Assembly: GCA_964619725.1 (NCBI GenBank)
Contig: CAZUFC010000014.1
Coordinates: 32,001-96,000 of the forward strand
DNA from: an uncultured bacterium
GTDB lineage: Bacteria; CSSED10-310; CAZUFC01
Direction of reading: 5' to 3'
DNA: 64,000 nt
Part shown: one piece after another, positions 53,525 to 64,000 of the stretch
How the letters are laid out: every line of letters begins with the position of its first letter
Numbering within the stretch: position 1 is the first letter of the stretch
The notes under the pieces: model-generated
Database searches by the model: none
Told to the model about the DNA's origin: nothing
The model's input: only the letters and a program-made list of their open reading frames with translations
Program-made: the position numbers and the translations under genes

Positions 53525-54865
53525 TCAAGCCTTCAACTCGACACGACAAAAGGGACACTTCAATTCGGGATAAGGTGGAAATACGCTGATTTCCTCCCCC
53601 CATTCGGTTACTCCTTCAGAACAGATATAGCCGCATGATTCGCACTGAGGAAAAACACTCCCGTTATCTCGTTTGCACTCGGTCACCTTCTCGACGGCTA
53701 TTCCGATTTTCTCAGCGAAAATCGCTGCCCTGTTCATATCGGGGTCGGAAGGTAAATTCTTTATTATATAAGCAGGCAGGGGAACGATAATTTGTTGCTG
53801 CCTGAACATATTCTCTATTATCGAAGCAGCGTTTCCGCTCCACCCGTACGATCCGAAAACCGCGCCTATTTTTCCTCTCATCCGAATTTTACTCAATGAA
53901 TATAGCATATCCCATATCGGCTTAATGACGTTCCTGTCCATCGTGGGCGAACCGATAATAATTCCTGACGATTCTTCAATGTGCTCTAAAGCCATTTTTA
54001 TATTGAAAGGATAATGATGCTCGTAAACGTGTATTCCCATGCTCCTGAGCTGTTCAACGATGCCTCTCGACAGCAACTCGGTAAAACCGTAAACCGACGC
54101 TGAAATCAAAACTACGCTTTTTTGATTCTTCAGTGAATGCTTCGACCACTCCAGATACTTGCACAGGTAAGTCTCAGGCTTGTGACGAATGACGGGGCCG
54201 TAAGCCGGCGCTATCATATTGAGATTCATTTTTGCCGCCTGATTCAGCGTTCCCATCAAATAATCGGTCTTGGAACGGAATACGTTGTTGTAATATCGCC
54301 GGAACGCAGTCGAAAACTCCGGCGCCTCATCATTGAACAGCCTTTCCGGACTGTAATGTGAACTCATGACATCCGAAGAAAAAAGAATAGCCTCTTCATC
54401 CAGATATGTAATCATTGAATCCGGCCAGGGGGCGAATCGCGAATGATAAAAGGAGAGATGTTTCCCCCCTAAATCTAATTTTTCTCCATCGCCGACGAAC
54501 TTGATGACCACAGACAAATCCTTGAAAGAATTATTCAGGACGTGTCTGGCGTTTTCAGCGAGGATAATCTTCGCACGGGAAGCCTGGTTTATGATCGGCA
54601 ACCAGGATGCCACCTGATCGAACATGAAGCGATTAAGCGCCACATAATCGATCTCTCTCAAATCGATCAGCGATCTCAAATTCTTTAACAGCTTATCACG
54701 GTGAAAACTCCCCACAGCATCAATCAAAACGTTTTTTTCCGCCTGCACAAGATAAGCATTGTACATGGTACCGCGCTGGAGGTCCTGTACGAGATTGAAC
54801 TTACGCAATGTAGGGTCCCGAGCGCCCACCCAATGCACCTGCGGAACCAACTGTACAGAATTCAA
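53525..54865 (-). CDS. FprA-type flavodiiron-like protein with degenerate di-iron site and C-terminal rubredoxin-like CxxC pair
   Basis: GTMYNAYLV, WPDSM, flavodoxin GSPT and FGSYGWSG, CESC...CPFC. Confidence 0.85.
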   Translation of the reverse strand: MNSVQLVPQVHWVGARDPTLRKFNLVQDLQRGTMYNAYLVQAEKNVLIDAVGSFHRDKLLKNLRSLIDLREIDYVALNRFMFDQVASWLPIINQASRAKIILAENARHVLNNSFKDLSVVIKFVGDGEKLDLGGKHLSFYHSRFAPWPDSMITYLDEEAILFSSDVMSSHYSPERLFNDEAPEFSTAFRRYYNNVFRSKTDYLMGTLNQAAKMNLNMIAPAYGPVIRHKPETYLCKYLEWSKHSLKNQKSVVLISASVYGFTELLSRGIVEQLRSMGIHVYEHHYPFNIKMALEHIEESSGIIIGSPTMDRNVIKPIWDMLYSLSKIRMRGKIGAVFGSYGWSGNAASIIENMFRQQQIIVPLPAYIIKNLPSDPDMNRAAIFAEKIGIAVEKVTECKRDNGSVFPQCESCGYICSEGVTEWGEEISVFPPYPELKCPFCRVELKA

Positions 54866-55076: not shown

Positions 55077-55625
55077 ATGAAAACCGGAGAATTAAAGGAT
55101 ATCATGGCTGCAGGACCCATTTTCAAGGGAATGTCTGCGGATGAGCTTGAACCTTTAGCGGAAAAATGTCGTCGCATGGACATGGATAAGGATCATGTGA
55201 TCTTCGAGTCAGGGGATGAAGGAACCTCGCTGTCGGTTATCCTTTCGGGCGCGGTGCGTCTGACGATACCTTGCGGCGATATGAGTCTGGGTGCGGTTGG
55301 TCCTGGAAAAGTATTCGGCGAAATATCATTTTTTGACCCCGGTCGCCGTCTGACGGGGGCCGTCGCCACAACCGACGTTACATTTTTTACGCTGAAAAAA
55401 GAGGCTTTTCTGGAACTTTTGAATAAGCAGGATACAGGGGCGCTGCGTCTTTTGCGATACATGAGTGAACTGATGGCGGAGAGGCTGAGCGATCTGCATG
55501 ACAGGATGGAGAGGGCGGCGCGTAAGCTAAAAAGAGCGACAGGAGCATCAGCGTCTGACAAGAAAGGCGAACAGGAAAAGTCAGAGGGCATATTACAAGG
55601 CATCCTGAATAAGTTAAAACTTTAA
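55077..55625 (+). CDS. Cyclic nucleotide-binding domain protein
   Basis: IFESGD, LSGAV, FGEISFFDPGRR; helical tail with no evident HTH. Confidence 0.85.
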   Translation: MKTGELKDIMAAGPIFKGMSADELEPLAEKCRRMDMDKDHVIFESGDEGTSLSVILSGAVRLTIPCGDMSLGAVGPGKVFGEISFFDPGRRLTGAVATTDVTFFTLKKEAFLELLNKQDTGALRLLRYMSELMAERLSDLHDRMERAARKLKRATGASASDKKGEQEKSEGILQGILNKLKL

Positions 55626-55726
55626 CGGCTGCTTTATTTTCAGTTCATGGAGCAAAAAATGAGCGACCGATTCCATTTCAGGATACATTTTGTCATGGTT
55701 GAGTGAACAATGGGGAGGCATTTAAA

Positions 55727-56338
55727 ATGAAAGTCACACCGGCTGCCTTGAAAAAGGTTGGTTTACTGAAAGAAATGACCGATGACCAATTGCTGAAATT
55801 GACTTCCAGAATGAAATACAGACGATTCACCGACAAGCAGGAGATATTTTCAAAAGGGGCTGCATCAGATTCGGTTTTCATAATCATAAACGGCAAAGCA
55901 GAAGCAAGGATATTCAGCGGAGAAGCGGGACTTGACGTGTCGGCTCACCTGGGCGAGGGTGAAATATTCGGCCAGGTTTCTTTACTCGGCAAAAAGCCCC
56001 GAACCGCCGCCTGTTCGGCCAGAGGGGCTGTTCTGACCGCTGAATTGAACTCAAGAGCTCTGGATGAGCTGCTGGAAGATAAAGACCCTGGAGCAGCGGC
56101 CTTTCTCCTGCTTCTGACGGAAAACCTGGCTAAACAAATCCGGCAGAGTCTCGCAGGAGTCATCAAGTTGTATGACAAACTGGAAAAGACCAGGGATTCC
56201 ATGGCTGCCGTTCGTCTGGAAATGGCGGAGATTCCAGGTGATGAAGCTGCAGGTGAAACGGAAGCTGAGACCGGTCCCCAGGAGGAAAAAATAATCCTTA
56301 ACGAACTGACTGAGATAATCAGAGAGTGCAGGTTGTGA
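55727..56338 (+). CDS. Cyclic nucleotide-binding domain protein
   Basis: IFSKG, INGKA, FGQVSLLGKKPRTA; helical tail; GGGGAGG RBS. Confidence 0.85.
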   Translation: MKVTPAALKKVGLLKEMTDDQLLKLTSRMKYRRFTDKQEIFSKGAASDSVFIIINGKAEARIFSGEAGLDVSAHLGEGEIFGQVSLLGKKPRTAACSARGAVLTAELNSRALDELLEDKDPGAAAFLLLLTENLAKQIRQSLAGVIKLYDKLEKTRDSMAAVRLEMAEIPGDEAAGETEAETGPQEEKIILNELTEIIRECRL

Positions 56339-56484: not shown

Positions 56485-56809
56485 ATGAGCATGCTGCGAG
56501 TTGGAAAACCAATATTCTTGACTCTTTTTGCCGTCTTGGTCTCGGCATTGTCGCTGCATTCCGGTCTCAGCGGATATCCTGACGGCGTGCTGAAGATTGT
56601 CGAAGGAGAACGAAACCGAACCGGAAATCGATCATCTCGTCATGACCATCACATATAAACCTTTTGATTTCATGTTGATAGAAGATTTTATAATGCCCCG
56701 GACTGACCCGGCATATGCCGCCTTCTACGCCATGATGTTCGAACCCAATGCCTTCTCACATGAATCAGCGGTCAGCAATCTGACCGTATGGGAATTCGAT
56801 CTGTATTGA
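56485..56809 (+). pseudogene. Possible frameshifted remnant of a small exported protein
   Basis: RBS + signal-peptide-like ORF 56485-56658 overlapping a +1-frame ORF 56597-56809. Confidence 0.3.
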
Positions 56810-56854
56810 GGACGGATGCCGAATCGAAGCTTAAAATCTGGATAAATATGTTCC

Positions 56855-56883
56855 TTGACAGGATTTTCCGGATAGCGTATTTG
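56855..56883 (+). promoter_or_regulatory. Putative promoter of the DCCP operon leader
   Basis: TTGACA (56855-56860), 17 nt, weak -10 TATTTG. Confidence 0.4.
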
Positions 56884-56909
56884 TCGTTTGAGTCATGAAT
56901 TCTTATTTC

Positions 56910-57170
56910 GAGAGGATTTTTCATGATCAAAGGTTTTGGTTTCACGTGAGGTTACATCGTTTAGCTAACCGGGTTTGTTAGACGAAACAGCAAGCCAGAA
57001 CCGATCCTGCCTATCTTTTTTTACCCTTGAAAGATAAATAAATACAGGTCACCTCCCGCACTGCAGCAGGTCAATCTACAGGCTGAAGACTACTAACCGG
57101 GAAGGATTTCTTTAGTTCTGTAAAAGACTGTGACCTCGTAAATATTCGGAGCGGAAGACGCACAGTCTGG
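56910..57170 (+). promoter_or_regulatory. Structured 5' leader / candidate attenuator with UGA-containing leader peptide (56923-56964)
   Basis: GAGAGGA RBS, ATG-IKGFGFT-TGA-GYIV-TAG; long hairpin 56910-57015 followed by T7; alternative pairings; two more hairpins. Confidence 0.6.
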
Positions 57171-57248
57171 AAGGACAGGAGGAAGGAGTCGGAGGATCGG
57201 GGGTTTGCAGTTTTCCGTTACGAAATTTCAATCTTATGAGAGGAGGAA

Positions 57249-58529
57249 ATGATGAGTAATGAATATCGGAGCATGTGGAAGGATTTAGGACTTGATCTGG
57301 AAGCCCATGACGCATTGCTGGGAGTATTGGGCGAAGGTTATGCGGAAACTTATCTGTCGCAGAAAATGCGGCCGGAGGGCATGAAGTATTTTGATTTTGT
57401 CATGAGCGAGGTTCATGGATTAAGAATAAAAGAGCTTCTGGATGAGAAGAAGGAAGGGCGAAAAATCATCGGATCATATTGTGTTTTCGTACCTGAAGAA
57501 ATCGTCCTGGCGGCCAATGCTTCTCTAGTGGGACTGTGTTCGGGCGCTGATTTCGCCGGGGAAGAAGTTGAAAAACTTTTACCTCGCAATACATGCGCTC
57601 TAATCAAATCGTCATTCGGGTTTCAACTCGGACGAGTATGCCCCTATTTGGAAAGCGCTGACATGATTGTCGGCGAAAACACTTGCGACGGCAAGAAAAA
57701 GGCATATGAAACGCTGGATGATCTCGTCGGAAACTTATATGTTATGGACCTGCCGCAGGTTAAATCCGAACAGGGACGAAAACTTCTCAAAACAGAATAT
57801 GACCGGTTCAAAACCGCAGTCGAACGCCTTACCGGAACCGCCGTTACCGCAGAATCATTAAAACAGGCGATCAAAACGGTCAACGCCAAGCGAAAGGCCG
57901 TTCAAAGATTGGCAAGCCTTCGCAATGCGTCTCCAGCGCCCATTTCAGGCCTGGATGCCCTTCTTATCAACCAGGTATTCTTCTACGACAATCCCGCACG
58001 CTTTACCGATGCCGTTGAAAAAATATGCGCTGAACTGGAAAAACGTATTGAAAACAAAACAGGCGTTTTCCCAAAAGAAGCTCCACGAATAATCGTTTCA
58101 GGTTGTCCTCAGGCTGTCCCCAACTGGAAGTTGCCGCACCTCGTGGAAAACTCCGGCGCCGTTATAGTGGGTGAAGAATCTTGCGTCGGCGAAAGAGGCG
58201 CACGAAATTTAACGGATGAGTCCGGCGAAACAATTGAAGAAATGATGGAAGCCATCGTCGATCGGCATTTTAAAATAGACTGCGCAATTTTTACTCCAAA
58301 CCCTGAACGTTTGGAGCATATCAGGGAAATGACCTCACAATATGATGCCGACGGGATTATCCATTACACTCTACAATTCTGTCAGCCGTATCTCATGGAA
58401 TCCATCCCCTTCGAAAAAAAACTGGAAGAAGAGGGAATACCCGTCTTGCGCATTGAAACTGATTACAGCATGGAGGATGTCGGCCAATTGAAGACGCGGA
58501 TAGAAGCTTTTATCGAGCAACTGCAGTAA
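57249..58529 (+). CDS. Double-cubane [8Fe-9S] cluster-containing reductase (DCCP; 2-hydroxyacyl-CoA dehydratase HgdB family)
   Basis: Characteristic N-terminus W.DLGLDLEAHD...RPEGMKYFD...HG.RI.EL; Cys motifs YCVFVPEE, NTCALIK, TCDGKKK, EESC, DCAIF, QFCQPY; IETDYS. Confidence 0.9.
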   Translation: MMSNEYRSMWKDLGLDLEAHDALLGVLGEGYAETYLSQKMRPEGMKYFDFVMSEVHGLRIKELLDEKKEGRKIIGSYCVFVPEEIVLAANASLVGLCSGADFAGEEVEKLLPRNTCALIKSSFGFQLGRVCPYLESADMIVGENTCDGKKKAYETLDDLVGNLYVMDLPQVKSEQGRKLLKTEYDRFKTAVERLTGTAVTAESLKQAIKTVNAKRKAVQRLASLRNASPAPISGLDALLINQVFFYDNPARFTDAVEKICAELEKRIENKTGVFPKEAPRIIVSGCPQAVPNWKLPHLVENSGAVIVGEESCVGERGARNLTDESGETIEEMMEAIVDRHFKIDCAIFTPNPERLEHIREMTSQYDADGIIHYTLQFCQPYLMESIPFEKKLEEEGIPVLRIETDYSMEDVGQLKTRIEAFIEQLQ

Positions 58530-58551: not shown

Positions 58552-59298
58552 ATGCTTTTCGCGGGAATCGACATCGGCTCTCGTACGATAGAACTGACCG
58601 TGATAAACGGCCAGGGTGATATTATAATCAATCTGCAGACCGATACAGGTTTCGATCCGATCAGGGAAGCCTTCAAGCTGATGGATGGAGTCGCTTTCGA
58701 CAGCATTACCGCTACCGGTTACGGCCGTAATTTATTTGAACTTGCCTGTGATGCGCCCACCGTTACCGAAATAAAAGCGCATGCTGCCGGCGCCAGGCAT
58801 TACTTCCCTGACGCTGAAACCGTGCTGGATATCGGCGGTCAGGACAGCAAAGCCATCGCCTTGTTCAAAAACGGTAAAGTGAAAAAATTTGAAATGAACG
58901 ACCGGTGTGCTGCAGGGACCGGGAAATTTCTCGAAATAACAGCCAGGACATTGGGCTACCCTATAGAAGATTTCGGTCCTGAAGCGCTGAGAGCCGAAAA
59001 GAATATCAACATTTCAAGCATGTGTGCTGTTTTTGCTGAATCAGAAGTCACTTCATTGATCGCAAGAGGTGAAAAACCAGCGGATATAGCCGGCGGACTG
59101 CATGCAAGCATCGTCCGCAGAACCGCCGCTATGATAAGAAGAATATCATCCGAAGGAGATATAGTTTTCACGGGCGGCGTCGCCCTGAACCCATGCATGC
59201 GCATTCTGCTGCAAAATACGCTGAAGCGCAGAATATTAACGCCGGACGACCCGCAAAGCATCGGCGCACTCGGCGCCGCGCTGCTGACGCGAAAATGA
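58552..59298 (+). CDS. ATP-dependent [4Fe-4S] activator/reductase (HgdC / DCCP-R type)
   Basis: GIDIGS, ATGYGR, DIGGQDSK, MNDRCAAGTG, SMCAVFAESE, TGGVA. Confidence 0.93.
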   Translation: MLFAGIDIGSRTIELTVINGQGDIIINLQTDTGFDPIREAFKLMDGVAFDSITATGYGRNLFELACDAPTVTEIKAHAAGARHYFPDAETVLDIGGQDSKAIALFKNGKVKKFEMNDRCAAGTGKFLEITARTLGYPIEDFGPEALRAEKNINISSMCAVFAESEVTSLIARGEKPADIAGGLHASIVRRTAAMIRRISSEGDIVFTGGVALNPCMRILLQNTLKRRILTPDDPQSIGALGAALLTRK

Positions 59299-60224: not shown

Positions 60225-63200
60225 TTAAAGCGATTCCGTTCTTCTTTTAACGAGCAAAAATGCAATAAGCGTAATCAGCAGCAGGAGTCCGGCGGGTTTT
60301 GCGGCGGGAACTGAAGCGGGAGTGAAAGTGGGAACGGGCGTGGGATTGGGATTGTATCCGTCCTGAGAGTATTTCCAGGCATCATCGAAGTAGCAGCCTT
60401 CGCCGGCGCCGCCGAATAACAATGTGTAATTCATTTCAGGATTATACGCCATTTCGATTTCGCATCTTACTTCAGGAGAATGTTCGGGACTTTCCTGATT
60501 CCATTCGGCATTTACTCCGTCCCAGGTCCAGGTATGGTTGGTGAAATCGCCGTTCTGGTCTGAACCGCCGAATAATATGCATTTCTGGAGTTCATCGTCA
60601 TAAGACATGGCGCCGTTAGCGAGAGGACCAGGCGATGAACCATCTTTTCTTAATACCCAGTTGCAATCGGCGGCATTTGAGTCACCATAGCTGCAATGCA
60701 ATTCCCAGGTATCGTCCAGTTTTTCTGAACCTGCGCAACCTCCATAGAGAACGACGCAGTTACGATTTTCATCGTAGGCCGTCATGGGTTCAGTTCTGGG
60801 TGAAGGAGAATCCTCCGTATCGATAAGAGACCAGTTTGTGCCGTCCCATTGCCAGGTATCGTTCAGAGCGGAGCCTCCGTTCCACCCGCCGAAAAGAATA
60901 ACGGTTTCGGTGTTCGGGTCATAAACCATTTTGTGGTGTCTGCGTGCACAGGGACTTGTGTTCGGTTGCTTCAGCAGCCAGGACGAACCGTCGAATTCCC
61001 AGGTATCGCTGTAGTAACCGCCATACCCCGTTATGCTTCCCCCGAAAAGCACGGTAACGCCTTTTGATGCATCATAAGCAGCGGCAGCACAGAGTCTGCA
61101 GGCAGGCGATTCGTTCAAACCATCGAGAAGTATCCAGTTTTCAGCCGCCGTATCGAATACCCAGGTGTCGTTAAGTGAGTTGATTCCGTCAACCGATCCG
61201 CCGAACAACAGAAACTCATTGTTTGCCTGATCATACGTCAGAATGTTCTCAGCTCTTGCGGAGGGATACTGGTCTGGAAAAATCTGATGCCAGTCGTAGA
61301 TTGTTTGATCGGCAGGTCCGTAAATATCATCGATCCATTTTTCCTGCCAGCCGCCGATATGGTCCTGGAATTCCAGCCGGAAGTAATTGGATGTCGTGAA
61401 TTCATTATCGGTCGCCGACATGCAGAGGACATCGTCGATGTAAACAAAGAAGCTTCCGTCAAAAGTCCTTTCAATTCTGCAATGCCGCCAGGTTCCCAGA
61501 TCGAAGCCTTCACCGGTGTAATAGGAATCCAGTTCAACCGTTTCGCCGCCGACCTTCTTTCGTAAAAACCAGGTTCGGCAGCAATCCTGATGACCGCAGG
61601 GTTCGCCGTGAACCAGTTCGTAAAAGTTGTCGGAATCAAGATGAATGAAATGGACATGACGGAAGGAATAATGCCCGTCGCCCTCAACCTTGGTGCGCCA
61701 TTTCCAGCATCCGTAAGCCGCTGTTTGCGGAATCTGAAGTATCCCCGCTCCCGGATTCGGCGCCGGCCCGTTGTATCGCAACGCCCCGGAAGCCGCGCTC
61801 CAGTATGAGCAGCCCTGGATGCATCCCCATGATGGATTCGACGTCCAGTCCCCGTCGGAAAAATCATCGTATTTTTGGAAGTCGCAGGGGAATGGGGTCG
61901 GGACTCCCGTCGGTGTGGGAATAACGGTGGGTACATATGTCGGTGTAGGAGACGCCTCTGCCGGTCCATAAATATCATCAATCCATTTTTCCTGCCAGCC
62001 GCCGATATGGTCCTGGAATTCCAGCCGGAAGTAATTGGATGTCGTGAATTCATTATCGGTCGCCGACATGCAGAGGACATCGTCGATGTAAACAAAGAAG
62101 CTTCCGTCAAAAGTCCTTTCAATTCTGCAATGCCGCCAGGTTCCCAGATCGAAGCCTTCACCGGTGTAATAGGAATCCAGTTCAACCGTTTCGCCGCCGA
62201 CCTTCTTTCGTAAAAACCAGGTTCGGCAGCAATCCTGATGACCGCAGGGTTCGCCGTGAACCAGTTCGTAAAAGTTGTCGGAATCAAGATGAATGAAATG
62301 GACATGACGGAAGGAATAATGCCCGTCGCCCTCAACCTTGGTGCGCCATTTCCAGCATCCGTAAGCCGCTGTTTGCGGAATCTGAAGTATCCCTGCTCCC
62401 GGATTCGGTGTTGGCCCGTTGTATCGCAGCGCCCCGGAAGATGCGCTCCAGTATGAACAACCCTGGATGCATTCCCATGATGGATTCGATGTCCAGTCGC
62501 CGTCGGTAAAATCGTCGTATTTTTGGAAGTCGCAGAGGAATGGGGTCGGGATTGCCGTCTCTGTCGGTATAAGAGTTGGAGTATTCGTGGGAGCGGGTGT
62601 CGGCGTCGGCGCTTCGCAATTGTATTCCCAGGTGTCCCCAATATCACTAACGCTGTTCTGACCGCCGAACATCATCATTATCTCGTTGCAGGAATCATAA
62701 GCTAATCCTAAATCCGTTCTTATGGGAGGAATTGTCGCCGGTTCTTCTTCCACCCAGGTATTGCCGTCCCAGGTCCAGGTGTCATTAGACGGTCCGTTAT
62801 CGGTCGTTCCCCCGAACAACACGCATAAATTACGGTTCGAGTCGTAAATCATTCTGCCGTCGTTTCTGGCCGGCGGAACAGAGCCTGTCGGATATTTTTG
62901 CTGCCAATCGCTTCCGTCATATTCCCAGGTATCGTCTAAATACACGCCGCCATTAGAACCACCAAAAAGCGCCGTCACACAACGTTCTTCATCGAAAGCC
63001 ATCATGGGCTCAGCACGCGGACCGGGTGAACCAACCGTCGTTATTAGCGTCCAATCGGACCCGTCCCATTCCCACGTTTCATTATTGTAACCGCCGCCGT
63101 TCCATCCTCCGAACATCACGACGACTCCCCGACAACTGTCGTAGACCATCCGGTGATGCCGACGGGGATATGGATTCGTATCCGGGGAAATCTGGGTCCA

Positions 63201-64000
63201 GTTCGTTCCGTCATATTCCCAGGTGTCGTTGTAATACCCCCCGTAACCGTTCGTGCTGCCGCCGAAAAACACAGCGACGTCTCTTGTGGAATCATAAGCC
63301 ATGCCGTAGGCGATCCGCGCTGAAGGTGAAGCGGAAGTATTCTTTTCTGTCCATGTTCCGGTACTGACGTTATACTCCCAGGTATCGGCATACGATTGAG
63401 TTCCGCCTTCATAACCGCCGCCGAACAAAACGCATACGCCGCGATAATCATCATAGACGATCTTAATCTCATGTCTTGCATCTGGAGAGGTCGAGGGAAA
63501 CTGCTCTTCCCAATCACAACTCATCATAGCAGGGGTACCCGTCGACACTGGGGTACAAGTCGGAAGCTGCGGCGTTTGAGTCGGCAAATAGGGAACGAAT
63601 GCCTGCACTCTGTAGTTTCCGCCGTTGCCGCCGTCGGACAGGAACACTCTTCCATCCGGAGCTTCAGCCATTTCAGACGGTCGCCAGTAAAATTCCTCCG
63701 GATCGCTGCCCTGGTAATCGTACCCTATTTCCGTTACAAGGTTCCAAGCGGAATCATATTTTCGCGCTTTGTATTCAGTTCTCGTCCAAAAATTACCTTC
63801 ATCGTCGATAAACAGAAGCGATTCGCCATAAGCGGGTCTTCTCCAGCCGGTATCGACACCGGCATTAGTAAATTTTGCAAACTCATCCCCCCCGACGCTA
63901 AGGTAAATGTATCCGTCTGGTGAGGCATGAATGTCTCCGCCGGCCTGCCCGGTATCCGTTACAATATATTCCCTGACGAATTGACCCTCCGTATTGTAAA
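60225..64000 (-). CDS. Large surface protein (N-terminus outside window): NHL-like repeats, Kelch-like propeller, duplicated beta-sandwich domain, second Kelch-like propeller, C-terminal sorting signal
   Basis: Frame stays open upstream of the track's ATG 63671 to the window end (hand translation); LFGG...DTWEYDG repeats; ends SVPAAKPAGLLLLITLIAFLLVKRRTESL. Confidence 0.88.
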   Translation of the reverse strand, partial: YNTEGQFVREYIVTDTGQAGGDIHASPDGYIYLSVGGDEFAKFTNAGVDTGWRRPAYGESLLFIDDEGNFWTRTEYKARKYDSAWNLVTEIGYDYQGSDPEEFYWRPSEMAEAPDGRVFLSDGGNGGNYRVQAFVPYLPTQTPQLPTCTPVSTGTPAMMSCDWEEQFPSTSPDARHEIKIVYDDYRGVCVLFGGGYEGGTQSYADTWEYNVSTGTWTEKNTSASPSARIAYGMAYDSTRDVAVFFGGSTNGYGGYYNDTWEYDGTNWTQISPDTNPYPRRHHRMVYDSCRGVVVMFGGWNGGGYNNETWEWDGSDWTLITTVGSPGPRAEPMMAFDEERCVTALFGGSNGGVYLDDTWEYDGSDWQQKYPTGSVPPARNDGRMIYDSNRNLCVLFGGTTDNGPSNDTWTWDGNTWVEEEPATIPPIRTDLGLAYDSCNEIMMMFGGQNSVSDIGDTWEYNCEAPTPTPAPTNTPTLIPTETAIPTPFLCDFQKYDDFTDGDWTSNPSWECIQGCSYWSASSGALRYNGPTPNPGAGILQIPQTAAYGCWKWRTKVEGDGHYSFRHVHFIHLDSDNFYELVHGEPCGHQDCCRTWFLRKKVGGETVELDSYYTGEGFDLGTWRHCRIERTFDGSFFVYIDDVLCMSATDNEFTTSNYFRLEFQDHIGGWQEKWIDDIYGPAEASPTPTYVPTVIPTPTGVPTPFPCDFQKYDDFSDGDWTSNPSWGCIQGCSYWSAASGALRYNGPAPNPGAGILQIPQTAAYGCWKWRTKVEGDGHYSFRHVHFIHLDSDNFYELVHGEPCGHQDCCRTWFLRKKVGGETVELDSYYTGEGFDLGTWRHCRIERTFDGSFFVYIDDVLCMSATDNEFTTSNYFRLEFQDHIGGWQEKWIDDIYGPADQTIYDWHQIFPDQYPSARAENILTYDQANNEFLLFGGSVDGINSLNDTWVFDTAAENWILLDGLNESPACRLCAAAAYDASKGVTVLFGGSITGYGGYYSDTWEFDGSSWLLKQPNTSPCARRHHKMVYDPNTETVILFGGWNGGSALNDTWQWDGTNWSLIDTEDSPSPRTEPMTAYDENRNCVVLYGGCAGSEKLDDTWELHCSYGDSNAADCNWVLRKDGSSPGPLANGAMSYDDELQKCILFGGSDQNGDFTNHTWTWDGVNAEWNQESPEHSPEVRCEIEMAYNPEMNYTLLFGGAGEGCYFDDAWKYSQDGYNPNPTPVPTFTPASVPAAKPAGLLLLITLIAFLLVKRRTESL
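61312..62559 (-). repeat. Intragenic tandem duplication (period 648 nt = 216 aa)
   Basis: 61333-61745 identical by eye to 61981-62393; the adjoining ~165 nt carry scattered substitutions. Confidence 0.95.

Follow-up and report, generated by a model that had tools for sequence, protein, structure and literature searches.

The window analysed here, a 64,000-nucleotide (nt) stretch of DNA from an uncultured bacterium (contig CAZUFC010000014.1, positions 32,001 to 96,000), contains an operon for a double-cubane-cluster reductase (DCCP) and its ATP-dependent activase that is preceded by a structured leader. This leader (56910-57022) comprises a short open reading frame (ORF) ending in UGA, a hairpin behind the UGA that resembles the selenocysteine insertion sequence (SECIS) of selenoprotein genes, and a long helix, P1, whose 5' arm is the ORF itself (Table 1). 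The Shine-Dalgarno sequence (SD), the ATG, the seven sense codons, the UGA, the hairpin, the long helix and the T7 tract are all read directly at the positions given for them in a preliminary description of this DNA. Judged from sequence comparisons, the leader is probably (a probability of about 0.7) a ribosome-dependent sensor of the capacity to decode UGA as selenocysteine (Sec), which would control the DCCP/activase operon. It belongs to a large family of leaders, so far undescribed, that is linked with selenium metabolism.

Table 1. Features of the leader and of the operon behind it in the window.
Feature	Position	Strand	Details
Putative promoter, TTGACA with weak -10 box TATTTG	56855..56883	+	TTGACA 56855-60, 17-nt spacer, TATTTG 56878-83; from sequence
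Shine-Dalgarno GAGAGGA of leader ORF	56910..56916	+	6 nt 5' of the ATG; doubles as base of the long helix
Leader ORF MIKGFGFT-UGA	56923..56949	+	ATG ATC AAA GGT TTT GGT TTC ACG; TGA 56947-49
Read-through tail GGT TAC ATC GTT and TAG	56950..56964	+	TAG 56962-64; lies within the 5' flank of the hairpin
SECIS-like apical hairpin CUAAC/GUUAG, loop CGGGUUU	56965..56981	+	CTAAC 56965-69, loop 56970-76, GTTAG 56977-81
Long helix P1	56925..57006	+	ORF codons 56925-41 pair with 3' arm 56993-57006; UGA and hairpin enclosed
U-rich tract	57013..57022	+	T7 at 57016-22; directly 3' of the helix
Double-cubane-cluster reductase (DCCP)	57249..58529	+	NF040772, 475 bits against a cut-off of 350; PF06050
ATP-dependent activase of DCCP	58552..59298	+	TIGR00241

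The minimum-free-energy (MFE) structure of 56905-57025 is a single long hairpin of dG -33.6 kcal/mol (shuffle mean -23.2, z -3.33), a stability that none of 200 dinucleotide shuffles matched. Pairings named in the preliminary description are present in this structure (56957-65 with 56977-85, 56932-41 with 56993-57002, and GATC with GATC), and in it the purine-rich SD pairs with 57013-20. The entire 391-nt leader is not unusually stable (z -1.22); its fold includes the TATCTTT/AAAGATA hairpin that had been put forward as a competing structure, and the alternative 28-codon ORF at 56895-56981 that had been pointed out likewise exists. In the window, P1 and the T7 tract together resemble an intrinsic terminator, with the leader ORF as its 5' arm. 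Consensus scanners called neither a promoter nor a terminator at the window leader; the -10 box is weak and the hairpin loop is above the scanner's limit.

BLASTN comparison of the leader with the 800 nt upstream of DCCP in 80 orthologue loci (species-representative genomes, mostly metagenome-assembled genomes of Desulfobacterota, with proteins 64-83% identical) found the hairpin region in six of them, and these have in common a ribosome-binding site, an ATG, seven codons and TGA, a near-identical CTAACCGGGTTTGTTAGACGA, and a 3' arm complementary to the ORF. A pattern for the hairpin only, in which the ORF was not used for selection, matched at least 120 loci on metagenome contigs. With similarity over the 17 nt 3' of the motif taken as the mark of a true copy, 71 loci among the matches listed are true copies (the window and the genome loci included) and 59 are distinct over -60 to +60, while about 50 listed loci that fail this 3'-arm test look like chance motif matches. 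In 58 of the 59 distinct copies among the matches listed there is an in-frame ATG...TGA reading frame that ends 18-21 nt before AACCGGG, and in none is the stop TAA or TAG. A covariance model of 55 copies (R1) recovered divergent copies within DCCP loci, which form a subfamily with the peptide M-x-x-F-F-G-F-T, apical stems CUACC/GGUAG, CUGCC/GGCAG or CUGAC/GUCGG, and loops CGGGUU[UC], CGUGUYU and similar. The element is not rare, since with a second covariance model (R2) it turns up in 56 of the 151 genomes that were drawn evenly from a single class, the one that holds the genome of locus L029 (73 matches at E ≤ 0.001, with at most three per genome), and in 1-3 copies in the genomes of each of five named loci. 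Altogether at least 92 distinct copies were gathered, from metagenomes and from genomes of Desulfobacterota type. A GAGG-type SD is kept across the leader alignments, and TTGAC lies 61-68 nt 5' of the leader ATG in 42 of the 56 distinct relatives with enough upstream DNA. Identity with a known RNA family was ruled out, as Rfam gave no match over 56500-57500 even at E ≤ 10, nor any at gathering score across the whole window, and on six consensus-type loci matched tRNA-Sec only and left the leader unmatched. The possibility that the helix is an ordinary terminator of the upstream gene was also rejected: it holds a conserved translated ORF, has a conserved TTGAC before it, and in the relatives stands before genes and not behind them.

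The coding signature of the ORF was read from a pool of 93 distinct items, 92 of which fit the pattern GGN-TTY-NNN-stop, the exception being L144. The locating regular expression fixed GGN and TTY and permitted TAA, TAG, TGA and TGG at the stop position, where TGA was found in 92 of 92 distinct copies and TAA or TAG never; nor does TGC or TGT take the place of the UGA among the 92. The start codon is ATG in 89 and GTG in one, and the ORF of two copies is longer or in another register. Codon 8 encodes Thr in 89 (ACC 64, ACT 16, ACA 7, ACG 2), with AGC, GCT and CTA once each. All 92 copies have an ORF of the 8-codon type with Gly and Phe at codons 6 and 7, which vary in the third position only (GGC 76, GGT 12, GGA 3, GGG 1; TTT 78, TTC 14). 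This stretch is unpaired in the model, and third-position-only variation there argues that the translated peptide is under selection.

Behind the TGA this regularity ends, in that sequence, tail length and frame are not conserved. The base 3' of the UGA is G in 62 copies, C in 18, A in 9 and T in 3. The next in-frame stop comes after 2-30 codons (TAA 41, TAG 36, TGA 13, with two frames running off the end), within 10 codons in 72 of 92, and the hairpin itself has stops in all three frames (counted from the motif, TAG at -5, TAA at -1 and TAG at +12). These features bear on the idea that the product is a micro-selenoprotein, a peptide of 10-40 residues with Sec at position 9 that would itself carry or signal selenium. 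Such a peptide would have what is seen here: an in-frame UGA followed by a SECIS-like hairpin, an N-terminal octapeptide that is conserved, and a setting in selenium gene clusters. It would hardly be expected that its sequence, frame and length past the UGA should drift over 2-30 codons, that the frame entering the hairpin should differ between copies, as it does since the TGA-to-motif spacer is 18-21 nt, that its ORF should be embedded in a covarying helix together with its own SD, or that it should always stand 5' of genes on the same strand. A micro-selenoprotein is accordingly a very remote prospect. The preliminary description had also suggested that the ORF derives from the start of a Sec-containing DCCP paralogue; this origin finds no support, as none of the genome's three HGD-D matches has an in-frame stop, the leader stands before unrelated genes as well, and the post-UGA frame is not conserved.

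Covariation of the helices was assessed in two alignments, A3 (57 sequences, aligned with MAFFT) and A5 (69 sequences including the divergent subfamily, aligned to the model). In A3, 94.4% of P1 cells are paired, four of the 11 pairs are changed on both sides, and one column pair divides into CG in 24 sequences and UA in 24. In 500 shuffles the paired fraction, the number of both-sides changes and the covariation score all stayed below the observed values, and pairing fell to 26-46% when the partner was shifted by 1-3 columns. In A5, both-sides changes occur in eight of 11 P1 pairs and three of five apical pairs, with 94% paired, a level that again none of 500 shuffles reached; the counts lean towards the model because the alignment was fitted to it. 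The apical stem variants among the relatives are CUGAC/GUCGG, CUACC/GGUAG and CUGCC/GGCAG. RNAfold favours in many copies an alternative apical fold (ACCGG..CCG-GU with UUUGU/ACGAA). This fold was rejected, as it shows no compensation, five of its pairs are only disrupted and it is absent in the divergent subfamily; the CUAAC/GUUAG stem covaries instead. An ACCUG:CGGGU pairing given by RNAalifold was likewise rejected, being uncompensated: loop G>U variants retain ACC, and ACA variants retain GGG.

The position of the hairpin is that of a bacterial SECIS. The bacterial consensus has a G (GG or GU) in the apical loop some 16-37 nt from the UGA, and the loop position in E. coli fdhF agrees with that of the leader. 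As in selenoprotein genes such as fdhF and selD, the leader has an in-frame UGA, a hairpin about 14-17 nt later, and loop G's at +23 to +25 from the U of the UGA. The TGA-to-AACCGGG spacing is 18-21 nt in 58 of 58 motif-defined copies among the matches listed, and divergent copies keep loops such as CGGGUUC and CGUGUUU, L027 excepted. For comparison, in the Sec-containing selD genes of six metagenomic leader loci and of the window's own genome, SECIS loops are predicted at about +20 to +25. Unlike a selenoprotein gene, the leader ORF does not encode an enzyme and has no Cys-containing homologue among the 92 copies, and its frame ends a few codons into the hairpin, 2-30 codons past the UGA.

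The genes behind the leader are a selenium and selenocysteine regulon. The metagenomic copies are followed by genes for DCCP, Sec-containing SelD (TIGR00476), YedE (TIGR04112), or MauE/DoxX and then a rhodanese, and further by a PstS-type binding protein and an activase. Beside these, 37 genome matches were surveyed, four of which have no assigned downstream gene. In nine of these loci a tRNA-SeC gene lies 66-128 nt 3' of the element, followed by SelB (TIGR00475) in five and by YqeB, an HdrC-like protein and YedE in one each. YedE is next in nine loci (three confirmed by NCBIfam, the rest identified by N-terminal sequence only), DCCP in six with fragments in two more, and Fe-S proteins like HmcF/TmcB/DsrK in four, and there is one locus each for SelD, the ExtI selenite/tellurite-operon porin, a TonB receptor, a TsoB-like rhodanese and an ABC ATPase. 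The element is always 5' of other genes and on their strand. A shared RNA signal that defines a selenium regulon would place DCCP and several unnamed genes in selenium metabolism; to our knowledge the physiological substrate of DCCP has been open since its discovery. A published link of DCCP to selenium is, as far as the accessible parts of the sources go, independent of the leader data: 955 of 970 NF040772 proteins lie in SelD-containing assemblies (bioRxiv 10.1101/2022.07.06.499078), and Lin et al. 2015 (PMC5322559) list an HgdB-like subunit and an activase among the STRING neighbours of YedE, YedF and LysR_Se in Slackia.

Other features of the leader loci were noted. Many genomes have two selB genes, the copy on the contig with the leader and a tRNA-SeC scoring 35-61 bits and the stand-alone copy 68-83 bits with SelB wing-3 (contigs G162:C42, G072:C192, G167:C64, G215:C277, G095:C262, G077:C364, G149:C174, G091:C64, G136:C18, G098:C10, G076:C1, G176:C98 and G175:C13; loci L232, L235, L247, L217 and L222), and it seems that the leader controls a second selC-selB pair, a divergent one. 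A protein of 73-93 residues with a start like MKFIFVCP and the motif CPxCG...HVYHASEL recurs between the leader and selD or yedE (L146:1293-1574, L136:1592-1813, L219:1075-1293, L162 and L107); neither Pfam nor NCBIfam has a match for this protein, which may belong to the selenium regulon as a member still without a name. The leaders of L097, L128, L158, L114, L107, L230 and L240 are followed by DCCP genes that are truncated or have internal deletions; their first 26-71 codons are kept, sometimes joined to the C-terminal ~35 residues, with other selenium genes behind them. It appears that the leader has moved together with the 5' end of the DCCP gene as one module.

A SECIS-type hairpin in such a position could in principle act without decoding, as a SECIS mimic that binds SelB-GTP-Sec-tRNA and alters the leader RNA, the ORF being incidental. 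Control of this kind exists in the E. coli selAB 5' untranslated region, where translation initiation is repressed by a SECIS-like element at a distance of 3 nt from the selA SD (Thanbichler and Bock 2002, according to the accessible text of PMC13449736), and the hairpin is the most conserved part of the present element. Within the scope of that text, the two systems share a 5'-leader hairpin of SECIS type that couples genes of the Sec machinery to the SelB-Sec-tRNA complex, but the selAB element is without an upstream ORF or UGA, whereas the hairpin of the leader follows the in-frame UGA of a mini-ORF, a UGA that is always present. Such an operator leaves unexplained why the G-F-T codons vary only synonymously, why a TGA stands without exception at a fixed distance from the hairpin, why SD and ATG are conserved, and why the ORF serves as an arm of a covarying helix. 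The hairpin moreover lies 170-500 nt from the SD of the regulated gene (motif to DCCP start is mostly 174-222 nt, 283 nt in the window and 496 nt in L023 and L167) or 66-128 nt before a tRNA gene, and so cannot occlude that SD. An operator that dispenses with decoding is therefore improbable.

The output of the leader can be judged in part from the RNA behind P1. Since in some loci the first regulated product is a tRNA, with its gene 66-128 nt downstream, the output has to act on the transcript and not on translation initiation. A run of at least five T's within 32 nt after the helix is found in 7 of 94 copies, the other clear case besides the window being L227 (T9); the T7 terminator of the preliminary description thus holds for the window and not for the family at large. 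Behind P1 the RNA is consistently rich in pyrimidines and poor in G (mean per 32 nt over the 94 copies: 10.1 C, 4.05 G), and by its composition it looks like a Rho loading site. Ahead of the main gene's SD, the DCCP-type leaders have additional conserved hairpins, and one of these clearly covaries by eye. Neither ribosome-masked folds nor the T-run survey gave a conserved expression platform. In the fdhF(Sec) gene of Treponema primitia, selenium controls transcription through translation (accessible text of PMC3892789); there too, as far as that text goes, selenium acts on transcription elongation via translation past a UGA and SECIS, but the polarity is on the selenoprotein gene itself, whereas here a dedicated mini-ORF leader controls other genes.

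A further hairpin of the DCCP-type leaders, UCCGAACACUCCCGGA, is conserved at about +95 to +115 from the motif and carries CCCGG, which is complementary to the loop sequence CCGGG. Ribosome-masked folds pair the CCCGG of UCCGAACACUCCCGGA with CCGGG in four of nine representatives, and in these models the two segments may form a long-range interaction with which SelB binding would compete.

The composition of the RNA after the helix, together with the conservation of the C-terminal residues at the amino-acid level and a stop that is always the UGA specific to release factor 2 (RF2), recalls an arrest peptide of the TnaC kind. In this alternative the nascent ...FGFT would sense a small molecule, e.g. 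a selenium compound, and block RF2 at the UGA, the hairpin and P1 serving as an attenuator only and the hairpin not being a SECIS. The layout of a short ORF and a ~200-nt spacer resembles that of tnaC-tnaA, and with tnaC the leader shares a short ORF ending in UGA, conserved C-terminal peptide residues and a long C-rich spacer, but it differs from tnaC in its SECIS-like hairpin and selenium regulon, and no free ligand is implied. A hairpin that is an attenuator only does not account for the retained SECIS geometry (18-21 nt, with a G-rich loop at +23 to +25) or for covariation of its stem; the ordinary stops within 10 codons in 72 of 92 copies and the three-frame stops of the hairpin matter only if the UGA is read through; and the regulon contains selC and selB themselves. 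Peptide arrest by a small molecule can be given only a small probability.

On the preferred reading, in which Sec decoding is what is sensed, the mechanism would run as follows. A promoter ~65 nt upstream would start the transcript, the first feature of which is the 8-codon ORF (MIKGFGFT in the window) that ends at the UGA, with the SECIS-type hairpin placed at what would be the working distance of SelB and with the ORF forming the 5' arm of P1, which would close over the UGA and hairpin. If Sec-tRNA(Sec) and SelB are plentiful, SelB would bind the hairpin and the UGA would be decoded as Sec, and the ribosome would enter the hairpin for a few codons and leave at an ordinary stop (the TAG in the window). 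With the ribosome gone P1 would form and transcription would end, in the window at T7 and in most relatives probably by Rho acting on the C-rich, G-poor RNA after P1. If Sec-tRNA is scarce, the ribosome would wait at the UGA, where the conserved peptide terminus F-G-F-T probably makes it harder for RF2 to bring about release, and would mask the 5' arm; P1 would be blocked and the polymerase would continue into the operon. The operon would thus be on when Sec is short. The sign of this switch and the terminator logic as proposed have slightly less than an even chance of being right.

Parallels with the amino-acid attenuators trpL, hisL and pheL are a short translated ORF with its own SD in a 5' leader, here placed between promoter and operon; ribosome progress over diagnostic codons, which here would report on one charged tRNA; overlap of the ORF with a helix that here would decide read-through; and, in the window, a U tract after that helix. 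Unlike those leaders, the present one would have as diagnostic codon a single recoded UGA that needs a SECIS and SelB in place of a run of sense codons. It has only eight codons and a conserved C-terminal peptide, no 2:3 antiterminator was found in it, the U tract is mostly absent, and its regulon includes a tRNA gene and an elongation factor.

Several observations weigh against a Sec-decoding sensor of this design. SelB is nearly universal in the class, its wing domain being found in 133 of 151 class genomes and in 52 of 56 element-bearing genomes, so that co-occurrence discriminates little; of the other four element-bearing genomes three have SelA (one of these also a SelB over the cut-off), and G191, with the weakest element match, has neither SelA nor SelB, the completeness of the genomes not being given. 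The apical loop is nearly invariant in the main subfamily, partly through the search pattern, so that the case for a SECIS is built on geometry, gene context and the covariation of the stem within the divergent subfamily; the A5 counts behind that covariation have the lean mentioned above. The divergent copy L027 carries CACUUUU for CGGGUUU. In L144 (1141-1280), which is without an in-frame ATG...TGA, the ATG is out of frame with the TGA and opens a 16-codon ORF that reaches to the hairpin TAG; this copy, which has a Sec-containing selD behind it, may have decayed or been re-wired. Across the family the terminator-like T tract lacks conservation, and no conserved antiterminator emerged, the ribosome-masked folds of nine representatives giving no conserved alternative. 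If the opened P1 exposes more RNA of the Rho utilization (rut) type, the switch could have the opposite sign. Finally, the host genome has exactly one leader copy by regular-expression and covariance-model searches, and its selD, selB and selA sit elsewhere without a leader.

With these points set against the invariant UGA, the covarying helices and the regulon, it is still likely that the element is a sensor of Sec decoding. The preliminary description had held that the ribosome at the UGA reports the availability of Sec-tRNA and SelB, and this is the best available explanation, strongly supported by comparative data and not proven. What it had expected of such a leader is largely found: Sec machinery in the genome (SelA, SelB and two SelD), a conserved frame of ribosome-binding site, ATG and UGA (TGA in 92 of 92, Thr at codon 8 in 89 of 92), covariation in both P1 and the apical stem, no known riboswitch in Rfam, and a hairpin whose spacing and loop G's agree with the SECIS of selD.

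If the sensor reading is true, the leader would be a cis-regulator that senses selenocysteine via stop-codon recoding, a principle that was not found described, and it would account for the way in which anaerobes that have a large selenoproteome keep selenium uptake, the synthesis of selenophosphate, tRNA-Sec and SelB in balance. In the full-text literature, with supplements and subscription journals outside the coverage, no leader ORF with a UGA and SECIS controlling selenium genes was found. The strings 'leader' and 'attenuat' do not occur in the accessible text of a 2026 review of the prokaryotic selenoproteome (PMC13188914), and 'leader', 'riboswitch' and 'regulat' occur zero times in the main text, as accessible, of bioRxiv 10.1101/2022.07.06.499078.

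The F-G-F-T-UGA motif may in addition be a new natural case of peptide-controlled termination. A more far-reaching version, which is speculative and on balance doubtful, has F-G-F-T make the ribosome refractory to RF2, such that only Sec-tRNA(Sec)-SelB resolves the UGA and the dwell time sets transcription of the selenium regulon. If this were true, dwell time would be a direct analogue read-out of Sec-decoding capacity, for a regulon spanning Desulfobacterota and the lineages that acquired it, in which uptake (yedE, the porin and the TonB receptor) with selD, the divergent selC-selB pair, and DCCP with its activase stand out. DCCP would then be a selenium-acquisition enzyme, acting e.g. by ATP-driven low-potential reduction of a selenium compound to selenide.

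The window's genome (9.17 Mb in 344 contigs), which holds the SelA, SelB and two SelD mentioned above, has in one selD (G000:C204:671-1600) an in-frame TGA, in the context G-A-G-U-A-C-K, and a downstream hairpin. By these sequence features the gene is one for a Sec-containing SelD; no leader copy precedes it. The window leader is somewhat divergent, scoring 75.7 bits against 100-120 for consensus copies, and it was not found in 13 same-phylum relatives (DNA search of 60 relatives, covariance model on 20), with one weak match in a same-domain genome (E 0.0076). The window DCCP is 80-83% identical to Desulfobacterota proteins, and leader and operon may have been acquired horizontally by the window's genome.

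In the window, the 9-mer CTAACCGGG recurs at 57093-57101, 128 nt 3' of its first copy, and the second copy lies in a small hairpin of its own (ACTAA...TTAGT, 57092-57116). A TGA at 57083-85 is only 8 nt 5' of this copy, which is not SECIS spacing; the second CTAACCGGG could be a second site of SelB type or a remnant. The leader has on its 5' side a gene of flavodiiron/flavorubredoxin type (53525-54865, minus strand) and two genes with cNMP-binding domains (55077-55625 and 55703-56338), and 3' of the operon are a DUF4282 gene and a gene for a 1148-residue Kelch-repeat protein (60225-63671, minus strand).

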